Shown here: in pieces, positions 60,801-63,800 of the stretch | Layout: each line of letters begins with the position of its first letter | How positions within the stretch are numbered: the first letter of the stretch is position 1 | Assembly: GCA_046292385.1 (NCBI GenBank) | Contig: JBKBRF010000016.1 | Location: 66,941 to 130,940 of the forward strand | From: Armatimonadota bacterium | GTDB lineage: Bacteria > Armatimonadota > SYMT01 | DNA: 64,000 nt | Direction of reading: 5' to 3' | Made by a program: the position numbers

Positions 60801-63800
60801 CGATCATCGCCATCATCCGGGAGCACCACGGGACCTGCCTGATCAAGTACTTCTACCACCAGGCGGTAACGGCCGCGGGCGAGGAAAATGCGTCCGCCCT
60901 GGAGTACCAGTTCCGGTATGAGGGTCCGCGTCCCCAGACCAAGGAGTCGGGTATTATCATGCTGGCCGACTCCGTGGAGGCGGCCTCGCGGACGCTGGAG
61001 AAGCCGACCCCCGGACGCATCCGGGACCTGATCGAGCGGATCGTGCGGGACCGGCTCTCGGACGGTCAGCTCGACGACTGCGAGCTGACGTTCAAGGACC
61101 TGGAGAAGGTGATCTCGTCGATGACGCGGTCGCTGACGAGCCTGCTGCACGCGCGGATCGAATACCCGAACACCGACAGCGCCGGCCTGAGGAGACTGGC
61201 AGCGGATGGAGCTGCTGATAAGCAACCAGTGGGACCCCAAAAGGCGCTTGCCGATACCCCGGAGACGGCTGCGGCAGCTTCTCGCGGCACTCCTGGATTC
61301 TGAGGCGGTCTCCCACGAGGTCGAGCTCTCCGTGGTCTTCTGCGACGACCCGTTCATCCACGACCTGAACCACCGCTACCGCGGCAAGGACAAGCCGACC
61401 GATGTCCTGAGTTTCACACAGGACCCCGAGTCCGGGCTCCTGGGCGACGTCGTCCTCTCCGTTCCCACAGCGGCGCGCCAGGCGGAGGCGCGCCGGCACC
61501 CGCTGGCGGAGGAGCTGGAGTGGCTCTTCCTGCACGGCTGCCTTCATCTCCTGGGGTACGACGATGAGACCGACGAAGGCGCCGAGGAGATGAACGTGCG
61601 CGCCCGGGCAGCGCTGGACCGCCTGGCGGAAGCAGCCCCGGTGGAGGCCGGCTAACGGCAGTGGTGCGATCCAAGCGACCCTCCGAGAGTTTTCGGTACG
61701 CCCTGAACGGCGTGCTGCTCAGCTTCAAATCGCAGCGGCAGCTCCGCGCCCACTTCATCCTGGCGCTGCTGGCGCTCTTTGCCGGATTCGTCTGGCAGCT
61801 CTCCCGGACCGAGCTCGCCATCCTCACCTGCACCATCTTTCTGGTGATCATGGCGGAGCTCTTCAATACCGCGGTAGAGACGGTGGTCGACCTCGTGACT
61901 CCGGATTACCACCCGCTGGCGAAGATCGCCAAGGACGTTGCCGCCGGCGCGGTGCTGGTCGTCTCGATCAACGCGGTGCTCGTCGGGATGCTCCTCTTTC
62001 TCGATCCGGCGAAGCTCACCACGCAGCGCGCCGCCTCCCCTCCGGGAGACGAGACGCTGCGGGTGCTGATCATCGGCTTCCTGATGCTGCTGATCGCGCT
62101 GGTGGTCTGGAAGGTGCGCGGCGGGAAGGGTCGCTTCCTCCAGGGCGGCGTCGTGAGCGGCCACACCGCCATCGCCTTCTTCCTGGCCACCGTGATCTCG
62201 CTGGTCTCCCAGCACCCGCTCACGGTGGTGCTCGCCTTACTGCTGGCGGCGCTCGTCTCCCAGAGCCGGGTAGAGGCGCGCATTCATTCACTTCAAGAAG
62301 TGCTGTTCGGCGCGCTGTTGGGGACGGCGCTGCCGGTGCTGTTGTACCGGGTGGTTCCCCTGATCCTGCAGCAGCTCGCCCGCGGCCCGGCTGGGGCCGG
62401 GAGTTAACGTATGGACCCTGACCCATGGCTGGGGGGATCCCTGGCCCTTGCCCTGTTCCTGTTGGGAGTGAACGCCTGGCTCTCCGCGCTGGAGACGGCG
62501 GTCATCAACGCCCGCAGGTCGCGACTGGCGCAGGTCGGCCCGCCCGCGCGCGTTCAGCGGGCGGAGCGGCTCATCGAGTCGCCGGATGAGTTCCAGAGCA
62601 GCGCGCACCTGAGCAAGTCGCTCAACGAGTCGCTCATCTACGCCGCGGCGGTAGTGGTCGGGCTCTGTCTCACCGCCGACGAGCGAGCTCCAGTGGCGAT
62701 TGCCGAGCTGCTGGCGACCGCATGGCCGGTACTGCTGGTGGCGGCGGTCTGCGCCTACTTCTGCGTCACGCTGCTCGGCGAGGCGCTCCCGAAGAGCTGG
62801 GCCGCCCTCGCACCGGAGGGACTGCTGCTCCGCTCGCTCGGGTTCATCCAGGTCTTCACGCTGGCATTTACGCCGGTCCGCTGGGCCACCAGCCGGCTAG
62901 GACGGCTCGTGTGGCGCAGTGCCGGCGGCGACCCGGTCCTGACCTCCCGCGCGGCCCATTCCGAAGAGGAGATCAAGCTCCTGGTGGAGGGCTCCGCGGA
63001 GGAAGGGGTGCTCGAGGAAGACGAGAAGGAGATGATCCACTCGATCTTCGAGTTCACCGACACCGTCGCCCGCCAGGTGATGACGCCGCGGATCGACATC
63101 TACAGCGTGGAGGCCGACGCCACCATGGAAGAGGTGCTGCAAGAGGCGATGGAGAGCGGGCACTCCCGGCTGCCGGTCTACGAGGGGACGATGGACCAAA
63201 TCGTCGGCGTGATCCACGTCAAGGACCTCCTCCCGCAGCTCCTCGGAGGCCACAGCACGGCGGTAAGGCAGTTGATGCGCGAGCCCTACTTCGTGCCAGA
63301 AGGTAAGCCGATCGACGAGCTGCTCCAGGAGTTCCGCGCCGCGAAGAGCCAGCTCGCCATCGTGGTGGACGAGTTCGGCGGCACCAGCGGGCTGGTCACC
63401 ATCGAAGACGTGCTGGAGGAGATCGTCGGCGAGATCGAAGACGAGTACGACACCGAGACCGAGCCGACCGCCCAGCTCTCCGATACCGGCGAGGGCACCC
63501 TCGTCGACGCGCGGATGACGATCGACGACGTGAACGAGGAGCTGAACCTCTGCTTGCCGGAGGGCGACTACGACACATTCGGCGGCTTCGTCTTCAGCCT
63601 CTTCGGCCGCCCCGCGATCCCGGGCGAGAGCATCCGCTACGAGAACCTGGAGTTCGTGGTGGAGGCGGTGGAGCGCCTCCGCCTGCAGAAGATCCGGATC
63701 GTGCAGCTCGCACCGCAAGCGCAGGAGGCGGAGAACGGCGCCTCGGTGGAGGCGTGAGATTGCGGGCTGATTGCCGGCGTGGGAGGCCTCGCTCTCGATC

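Follow-up and report, generated by a model that had tools for sequence, protein, structure and literature searches.

The stretch of DNA that we analysed, referred to below as the window, is 64,000 nt long and belongs to contig C16 of an Armatimonadota bacterium (G000, an assembly of 91 contigs, family f1). Its end is occupied by a cluster of co-directional genes, which is opened by a mtaB-like gene and closed by a corC-like gene. The features, in window positions, are as follows.

56794..58290, + strand: mtaB-like radical-SAM methylthiotransferase (TIGR01579, 415.3 bits vs a cut-off of 357; Radical_SAM, UPF0004 and TRAM)
58287..58628, + strand: HIT-family hydrolase (PF01230, 94 bits)
58739..58936, + strand: rpsU, ribosomal protein bS21 (TIGR00030, 80.7 bits)
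58970..61303 (start codon provisional), + strand: 7TM-HD membrane phosphohydrolase (PF07697, 136.8 bits; PF07698, 81.2 bits; PF01966, 68.2 bits)
61206..61655, + strand: ybeY (TIGR00043, 133.2 bits vs a cut-off of 45, model positions 9-143 of 146)
61661..62407, + strand: dgkA-like gene, a DAGK_prokar and PAP2 fusion (PF01219, 121.7 bits, residues 12-113; PF01569, 37.5 bits, residues 161-233)
62411..63757, + strand: corC-like CNNM/CBS/CorC_HlyC transporter, the last gene of the cluster (PF01595, 87.9 bits; PF00571, 71.2 bits; PF03471, 64.4 bits)
63758..64000, no strand: 243 nt to the contig end, with no Era-like frame

The 7TM-HD phosphohydrolase is presumably PgpH-like. The six-frame match to YbeY, the RNase that matures the 3' end of 16S rRNA and the usual partner of Era, spans window positions 61254-61628. 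The fusion of a diacylglycerol kinase with a PAP2 phosphatase is also present in the family mate G005. Since C16 is 130,940 nt long, its last nucleotide being window position 64000, the contig ends 243 nt past corC. For the open frame at 63779-64000, searches with Pfam, NCBIfam and the Era profiles returned no match.

The initial annotation of this DNA had taken the presence of the usual gene neighbourhood without era as evidence that the gene is missing, while noting with concern that the contig breaks off just after corC. The first argument carries no weight, because the distance between era and ybeY is 76 kb to 2.1 Mb in the 15 Era-bearing genomes of the phylum in which the two were found on the same contig. 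The position of the break is as described, but it is no cause for worry, because era is not near ybeY in the phylum and because the same cluster in G005 likewise has corC as its last gene, well inside a 1.62-Mb contig. The flanks of era vary between families of the phylum, and we abandoned them as a route to showing a clean excision.

Search for Era in the genome

G000 encodes no Era, i.e. no protein combining the G domain with the KH domain. We counted as Era any protein with a full-length match to TIGR00436 (model positions 1-270) scoring more than 116.25 bits within one domain pair. A six-frame search of the genome with this model returned 17 matches at E<=10, all of which end by model position 186 of 270. 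The highest scores belong to Der (81.8 and 66.6 bits), MnmE (53.5 bits), HflX (36.8 bits) and Obg (26.5 bits), four proteins whose names were assigned by NCBIfam models. There is no full-length match above 116.25 bits in the genome, the best single stretch being the 81.8 bits in Der, and the flag 'over cut-off' that the genome receives (summed 134-146 bits) arises because both G domains of Der are added together. The same search, which reads through stop codons, revealed no era remnant.

The KH domain was sought separately. KH_2 (PF07650) has a single clear match in the genome (60.2 bits). The frame concerned, 280 aa long and located on contig C3, is a putative uS3, a name taken over from the initial annotation. 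Three weak matches (22.4, 17.8 and 16.6 bits) occur in larger, unrelated frames, which are PNPase and NusA as read by eye and RNase Y as named by NCBIfam. We also ran a profile made from 10 Era proteins of Armatimonadota, with all filters off, against the 107,911 six-frame ORFs of the genome. Its G half matches the same GTPases as TIGR00436, and its KH half reaches a best E value of 13, in frames that look non-coding. The frames with the best scores, at C11:1734-2657 and C24:89120-89620 (E 13-14), were rejected as Era KH domains, their translations being Arg-rich and non-coding in appearance. A second KH-half profile (A2) gave zero matches. As judged by KH_2 and the KH-half profiles of the phylum, no product of G000 has an Era-like C-terminal type-II KH domain joined to a G domain.

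Nor does any protein of ∼300 aa in the genome carry an Era-type G domain, every MMR_HSR1 match above cut-off lying in a longer protein. Those named by NCBIfam are Der, MnmE, Obg, HflX and both copies of RsgA, and those read from their translations are FeoB, IF2, RF3, SelB, BipA, EF-Tu, LepA, an EF-G-like protein and ABC-F. Two further candidates were discarded. A CobW-type GTPase and the next ORF (C1:208773-210428), which faintly match the two halves of the phylum's Era profile (E 2.1 and 22), were put down to chance, Pfam finding cobW in the former and nothing in the latter. YqeH, considered as a substitute for Era, is not encoded in G000: its cut-off is 297 bits, and the best score, obtained in Der, is 40.4 bits. 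The central claim of the initial annotation for this genome, that it has no era gene, is therefore confirmed by TIGR00436 matches restricted to G domains and by the poor best E value of the phylum KH-half profile.

Distribution of Era in the phylum

All seven genomes of family f1 have only G-domain matches to TIGR00436, in agreement with the family-wide absence proposed earlier. Of 151 Armatimonadota genomes, 75 carry an Era that matches over its full length, at 123-294 bits, whereas the matches listed for the other 76 include no such protein. The latter make up 24 of the 39 families, not one of which is mixed. The proposal that about half of the sampled phylum has a normal era, the gene having been lost inside the phylum, is thus borne out on a wider scale. 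For 69 of the Era-less genomes (all but G000, G005 and five closed ones) the call is the best E value of one model, among the matches listed. The genomes sampled range from 2.1 to 9.1 Mb and are unreduced.

The five closed Era-less genomes (G026, G108, G129, G140 and G149) each consist of a single contig, and none belongs to family f1, the best assembly of which is G005 (30 contigs, 97% completeness). Profile A2, for which the positive controls G137, G143 and G034 yield 129-155 bits, finds no match in these five, in G000 or in G005 (best E 0.92 among the five). The absence of both a full-length Era and an Era KH domain consequently holds in complete genomes, beyond drafts. In G152 Era seemed to be split, and G139 seemed to have an additional Era KH domain standing alone; both cases were set aside, the pieces ending exactly at contig ends and hence being assembly breaks.

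These data bear on whether era simply fell into a gap of a draft assembly, for example 243 nt past corC, or was lost in binning. Although G000 is fragmented and lacks a 16S gene, and although the window stops at a contig end, such an artefact can hardly account for the agreement of all seven family genomes, for the same absence in five single-contig genomes from Era-less families other than f1, or for the lack of mixed families; the distance between era and ybeY in the phylum and the cluster of G005 speak against it as well. The core claim of the initial annotation, that neither the genome nor its family has Era and that the loss took place within the phylum, is supported. Our literature search found no earlier report of Era loss in Armatimonadota.

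Number and direction of changes

A species tree was built from RpoB and RpoC of 48 genomes covering the 39 families; it is a two-protein tree from a short search, with no outgroup and hence unrooted. Presence and absence of Era require 6 changes on it with both FastTree and IQ-TREE, or 5 when single-genome families are set aside. Forcing the 28 Era-less rows into one clade lowers the log-likelihood by 580.6 units and is rejected (p-AU 5.6e-6). The supported clades of the Era tree agree with the species tree.

We also built a wider Era tree with 21 Armatimonadota rows and 79 Era proteins from other phyla. When left free, it does not recover the phylum as one group and has 6 changes, 3 of which are forced by starred branches, with 19 of the 20 Armatimonadota rows lying in one region. 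Families f10 and f35 group with Cyanobacteria and Melainabacteria (support 84), while the Era of f17, which has a long branch, is placed beside a Bacillota row (support 85), so transfer into those lineages is possible. Constraining the 21 Armatimonadota rows to stay together gives a likelihood 21 units above that of the free tree (p-AU 0.718).

A single early loss of Era followed by horizontal regain in about six lineages would draw on these placements and on the fact that parsimony on an unrooted tree cannot separate gain from loss. We regard this scenario as very unlikely, because the constrained tree is the better one, nearly all rows share one region of the free tree, the supported Era clades mirror the species tree, and the placement of f17 is unsafe on account of its long branch. 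Because the Era genes of the phylum are compatible with one vertical origin, we favour repeated loss. That the loss is secondary, from an ancestor that had Era, is supported by the 75 of 151 genomes that carry it and by an Era monophyly that is not rejected, on trees whose root was not inferred. Taken together, these findings make it probable that the absence is real and that Era was lost repeatedly, in at least 5-6 independent events, from an Era-bearing ancestor of the phylum. That ancestor would have had era, and the at least 5-6 separate losses would have taken place in lineages with ordinary genomes of 2-9 Mb, one of them presumably in the clade f1+f2, which includes G000.

Other assembly factors and the 16S rRNA target

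G000 encodes RsgA (two copies), RbfA, RimM, YbeY, Der, Obg, HflX, YchF and KsgA, all of which except KsgA had been listed earlier as kept and are confirmed here by profile matches. EngB and RimP had been listed as lost together with Era. Neither EngB nor RimP_N was found in G000, but this does not set the genome apart. EngB is found in 7 of the 151 genomes, whatever their Era state, and passes the cut-off in only 6 of 14 control genomes, and RimP_N occurs in 18 of the 151 (absent from 133) and does not track Era. A divergent RimP upstream of nusA was dismissed, the upstream frame being unlike RimP by eye.

The other factors are widely kept, YbeY being present in 150 of 151 genomes, KsgA in 48 of 48 and RimM in 47 of 48. 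RbfA is present in 75 of the 76 Era-less genomes, the exception (G123) being a 300-contig draft with eight family mates that carry RbfA. It is absent from 14 of the 75 Era-bearing genomes, all of which belong to the clade f10+f35 (14 of its 14 genomes), so that no lineage among the 151 genomes lacks both Era and RbfA. Because the loss of RbfA amounts to one change on the species tree, this pattern has no statistical weight and is suggestive only. RsgA, found in 105 of 151 genomes, was rejected as a general compensator, since it went undetected in 31 of 76 Era-less vs 15 of 75 Era-bearing genomes.

The RNA binding site of Era comprises GGAUCACCUCCUU and helix 45. The 3' end of 16S rRNA reads GGATCACCTCCTT in four of four closed Era-less and in five of five Era-bearing genomes; the site was read in other genomes only, the assembly of G000 having no 16S gene. 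An altered binding site was therefore rejected as an explanation.

Late maturation of the 30S platform and of the 16S 3' end would thus run without Era in these lineages, on an RNA site (GGAUCACCUCCUU, helix 45) that is unchanged in the genomes read and with RbfA, KsgA, RimM and YbeY, which act there, all kept. According to passages of PMC10582724, Era and RbfA have KH domains that sit on overlapping elements around h45. As a KH-fold factor on these elements, RbfA would be the most likely stand-in. A plausible though tentative reading is that the retained factors, RbfA above all, take over the role of Era.

Era's job might instead be done by a replacement that is not recognisable, either an Era that has diverged beyond detection or an unrelated protein such as the long RsgA of the window's clade. 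This protein (C22:42160-43680 in G000; TIGR00157, 168.1 bits vs a cut-off of 100; PF03193, 153.5 bits) has residues 300-506 outside TIGR00157, which form a clade-specific C-terminal domain of ∼207 aa. The extension is found in G000, G001, G004, G005 and G050, i.e. five of the six sampled genomes of the window's Era-less clade, with one weak match outside that clade (G136). Only 19 proteins among 5.8 billion carry it, all of them RsgA fusions of 500-558 aa, and its predicted fold is fairly confident (pLDDT 75.7, pTM 0.80). The Era of f17, at 123-157 bits and on a very long branch, illustrates how far the protein can drift. Still, we consider a hidden replacement unlikely. The KH-half profile, which includes the divergent f17 Era, finds nothing at E<0.9 in seven Era-less genomes. 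With at least five losses, a replacement common to all of them must either be older than every loss or have arisen repeatedly, yet other Era-less clades lack the RsgA extension, and the Era-less genomes in which no RsgA was found include the closed G140 and G149. Moreover, the extension belongs to no Pfam family and nothing ties it to RNA.

Its fold gave no match at E<=0.001 in a Foldseek search of the PDB, and among 48,161 chains compared with VIA-align the best hits (Z 5.0, rmsd 3.5, 85 residues) are generic beta-barrels below the noise level of the tool. Its matches in a protein atlas are labelled 'EVE domain' or hypothetical (score 0.93), a lead only.

Discussion

Section 5 of PMC10582724 presents Era as all but impossible for bacteria to lose, genome-reduced lineages being the exceptions, and PMC10582724 and PMC12641178 name Dependentiae, Chlamydia and most CPR as such lineages. 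The initial annotation had likewise limited the known exceptions to genome-reduced lineages. This is too strong, since the Figure 1 legend of PMC10582724 describes Era as patchy in Planctomycetota, Elusimicrobiota and Synergistota, and the same article lists era as non-essential in several species. Armatimonadota resemble these three phyla in having a patchy era within one phylum, some of the phyla in the legend also having unreduced genomes. They are not on the list in that legend, however, which gives no event counts, closed genomes or partner factors. The supplement of PMC12641178 lists three Armatimonadota genomes.

Like Dependentiae, Chlamydia and CPR, Armatimonadota include lineages with no recognisable era and a thinned set of other factors (EngB, RimP_N and RsgA in 7, 18 and 105 of 151 genomes, respectively). 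Unlike them, they have genomes of 2.1-9.1 Mb and a standard rRNA 3' end, keep RbfA, KsgA, RimM and YbeY, and have lost Era repeatedly within one phylum. In the CPR, era and rbfA are complementary among classes, as reported in PMC12641178, and the Armatimonadota pattern, in which the clade that lacks RbfA keeps Era and Era-less genomes, with one exception, keep RbfA, is similar. It differs in that no Armatimonadota lineage lacks both and in that there was only one RbfA loss, which leaves the likeness suggestive. Because some CPR classes lack nearly both genes (PMC12641178), keeping one of the two is no general rule. Reported mutants without Era also live and build 30S subunits, but those are described as sick laboratory constructs, whereas the state in Armatimonadota is natural, old and common to whole families.

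It is possible, and we put this forward as the more speculative part of our interpretation, that Armatimonadota as a whole escaped dependence on Era. Some alteration at the root of the phylum, or close to it, would have made Era dispensable, after which free-living bacteria of large genome size would have dropped it at least five times. Of Era and RbfA, the KH-fold factors that act on helix 45, at least one would always be kept. Individual clades may have added patches of their own, such as the 207-aa beta-rich domain, found almost nowhere else, on the only conserved RsgA of the window's clade.

TIGR00436 belongs to the single-copy markers on which bacterial trees and estimates of completeness are based, and both would be biased for Armatimonadota if it is systematically absent. 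For the biology of the phylum, the repeated loss of Era from ordinary free-living bacteria indicates that dependence on this GTPase can end while ribosome and genome keep their size. The losses, at least five of them independent and standing beside sister clades that keep Era, would be a natural experiment on what makes Era dispensable, and the cultured members of the phylum open Era-independent 30S assembly to study at the bench.

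Era is absent from the genome and from its family

The NCBIfam model (TIGR00436) of Era, a ribosome-assembly GTPase with a G domain and a KH domain, gives 17 matches at E ≤ 10 in the Armatimonadota genome under study (G000) when all six frames are searched with stops read through, and none of these extends beyond model position 186 of 270. The top matches are to proteins named by NCBIfam Der (544.6 bits), MnmE (402), HflX (483), and Obg (571). An Era tally that lay over the cut-off in G000 proved to be the sum of Der's two G domains and not an Era. KH_2 has one clear match (60.2 bits), in a 280-aa frame that is taken as a putative uS3, and three further weak matches, all in much larger frames. 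Ten Era proteins of the phylum itself were used to make further profiles, which were applied with every filter disabled to 107,911 six-frame ORFs of at least 30 aa. The full-length profile found only the G domains already matched by the Era model, and the profile of the KH half had a best E of 13 among these ORFs, in Arg-rich frames unlike coding sequence. These searches bear out the claim of the initial annotation that G000 has no era, and its extension of the claim to the family (f1) also holds, because G-domain matches alone were found in seven of seven f1 genomes (69-98% complete). YqeH is likewise absent from G000.

The contig break behind the gene cluster hides no expected gene

As assessed by profile matches, window positions 56,794-63,757 are occupied by a single co-directional gene cluster on the + strand.

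Genes of the cluster, in order
Gene 1, + strand, MtaB (TIGR01579, 415 bits)
Gene 2, + strand, HIT hydrolase
Gene 3, + strand, bS21 (TIGR00030, 80.7 bits)
Gene 4, + strand, 7TM-HD membrane phosphohydrolase
Gene 5, + strand, YbeY (TIGR00043, 133.2 bits against a cut-off of 45)
Window 61661-62407, + strand, dgkA-like gene joining a diacylglycerol kinase domain of the prokaryotic type to a PAP2 phosphatase domain
Last gene, + strand, CNNM/CBS/CorC transporter (corC)

The final base of the window is also the final base of the 130,940-nt contig (C16), 243 nt past corC, and the sole open frame of this tail has no family match. The cluster of the family mate G005 sits within a contig of 1.62 Mb, and the six cluster genes scanned there all match their G000 counterparts. 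The genes 3' of corC in G005 are convergent and unrelated (a DUF7948/beta-propeller protein, an FAA hydrolase, and an enolase-superfamily protein). corC closes the cluster, and no expected gene is concealed by the break at the end of C16. The dgkA-like kinase/PAP2 fusion is also kept in G005. The ybeY neighborhood had been regarded as the usual site of era, which is not the case in this phylum: where both genes were found on the same contig (15 Era-bearing genomes), the distance between them ranges from 76 kb to 2.1 Mb.

Era is missing from about half of the sampled genomes of the phylum

In an even sample of 151 phylum genomes, at least 85% complete and taken out of a larger group, full-length Era was found in 75 (123-294 bits) and in none of the other 76, most of these Era-less calls being the best score of a single model. 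The Era-less genomes show only Der-type matches (72 genomes) or no match at E ≤ 1e-15 (four genomes). Era presence splits by family without exception, with 15 families having it and 24 lacking it. Of the Era-less genomes, five (G026, G108, G129, G140, and G149) consist of one contig each; a separate profile of the KH half (A2), which scores 129-155 bits in three Era-bearing control genomes, finds nothing in these five (best E 0.92), nor in G000 or G005.

Several sequences have features of their own. In G129, rpoB and rpoC are scattered across several frames (C1:1158130-1167000, locus L070), indicating many assembly frameshift errors, so gene calls there need care. Era of family f17 (e.g. G034:C14:21998-22819) is far diverged, with a very long branch and 123-157 bits as against 210-294 in the others; RsgA was found in none of five f17 genomes. 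The profile match of G048 Era (C1:355124-355816, locus L104) is split in two, with ∼55 additional residues separating model positions 48 and 50, a G-domain insertion.

Era has probably descended vertically and been lost repeatedly

To count changes of Era state we used an unrooted two-protein species tree (RpoB and RpoC; 48 genomes, one or two per family, 39 families), computed with FastTree on 2,558 columns and with IQ-TREE (LG+G4) on 2,504 columns. Both trees need six changes, every one forced by well-supported branches, and none of 500 label shuffles required as few. Two of the six depend on one draft genome each, G015 in one case and G070 (88% complete, in 710 contigs) in the other, and five changes are left without these. 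A tree constrained to unite all 28 Era-less rows is worse by 580.6 log-likelihood units (p-AU 5.6e-6). Among the independent Era-less groups is the clade of the window itself, f1 with f2. One genome, G033, has two rpoB copies (contigs C79 and C117), of which one is complete and the other, at the end of a contig, only partial; this may reflect bin contamination or a strain mixture.

We also computed a tree from 20 of the phylum's Era proteins, and its supported groups (f9+f32; f3; f5; f8+f23+f28+f31+f36; f10+f35 with f15) agree with the species tree. When 79 Era proteins from other phyla were added (80 loci were fetched, and one was too short and dropped), 19 of the 20 rows came to lie in a single region of the tree, next to Actinomycetota, Cyanobacteriota, and Chloroflexota. 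A free search did not recover the phylum as one clade: f10+f35 adjoin Cyanobacteria (support 84) and f17, on a very long branch, adjoins a Bacillota row (support 85), as might be seen had Era been transferred into f10+f35 or f17. Such a transfer is possible, but the likelihood with all 21 Armatimonadota Era rows constrained together is 21 units above that of the free tree (p-AU 0.718). A public MAG labelled Armatimonadota falls within the f10 Era clade, in keeping with the phylum assignment. The simplest reading is that Era descended vertically and was lost repeatedly.

Other assembly factors vary across the phylum

EngB was found in 7/151 genomes and was below cut-off in 4/10 bacterial controls as well. 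The RimP search used the N-terminal Pfam model alone, which a diverged RimP could escape; it is positive in 10/10 bacterial controls and in 18/151 phylum genomes, which come from a single region of the RpoBC tree and belong to families with Era (f16) and without it (f14, f20, f24, f30, f33, f34, and f37). YbeY was found in 150/151 genomes, KsgA in 48/48, and RimM in 47/48. RbfA was found in 136/151 genomes; the 15 others comprise f10 (12/12), f35 (2/2), and one 300-contig f7 draft, whose eight family mates have RbfA. All 14 genomes of f10 and f35 (e.g. the closed G134 and G143) keep Era, a mirror image of Era loss. No lineage in the 151-genome sample lacks both Era and RbfA, a pattern without statistical weight because RbfA loss occurred only once.

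RsgA was found in 105/151 genomes and not found in 31/76 Era-less and 15/75 Era-bearing ones. Neither Era nor RsgA was found in the closed genomes G140 and G149; both GTPases of late 30S assembly thus seem to be missing there, and RbfA, KsgA, RimM, and YbeY are kept.

G000 has two RsgA genes, an ordinary copy (311 aa, 200.5 bits) and a long copy (168.1 bits).

Long RsgA gene of G000
C22:42160-43680 (locus L035:970-2487), long RsgA, 506 aa with a C-terminal 207-aa extension

The final 207 residues match no Pfam family. The extension is present in five of the six sampled genomes of the Era-less f1+f2 clade (G000, G001, G004, G005, and G050), with one weak match outside it, and in only 19 proteins among 5.8 billion, all RsgA fusions. 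One homologue of the long RsgA bears an "Armatimonadetes bacterium" name, which also agrees with the phylum assignment. An AlphaFold2 model from a five-row alignment is mostly beta (pLDDT 75.7, pTM 0.80) and has no above-noise match by Foldseek or VIA-align; protein-atlas matches to "EVE domain" or hypothetical proteins (0.93) offer a lead only. The extension may be a candidate clade-specific patch for the lost Era.

How assembly may run without Era

In the passages of the Era review used here, only extremely genome-reduced groups are said to have overcome "Era addiction", the legend of Figure 1 adds patchy era in Planctomycetota, Elusimicrobiota, and Synergistota, and Armatimonadota are not mentioned (PMC10582724). 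Passages of a 2025 survey of 30,000 genomes, three of them Armatimonadota, describe era as highly conserved outside CPR (PMC12641178). Our full-text search found no published work linking Armatimonadetes/Armatimonadota with the Era GTPase, and among the titles and abstracts listed by a broader one none dealt with this phylum.

The 16S 3' end reads GGATCACCTCCTT after a standard helix 45 in 4/4 closed Era-less and 5/5 Era-bearing genomes. Era's RNA site is intact, as read in the four closed Era-less genomes; no 16S gene was found in the G000 assembly. According to the review passages, the elements around h45 on which the KH domains of Era and RbfA act overlap, Era comes into play earlier than KsgA, RbfA, and RsgA, additional Era can suppress the loss of rbfA, rsgA, or ybeY, and era is non-essential in several species (PMC10582724). 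Platform maturation in Era-less lineages would go via the retained factors, among which RbfA would be the likeliest to cover Era's contact. Some CPR classes are nearly without both era and rbfA, as described in part of the 2025 survey (PMC12641178), which argues that even cover by RbfA is not obligatory. Because Era loss has recurred, whatever permits it probably sits at the base of the phylum.
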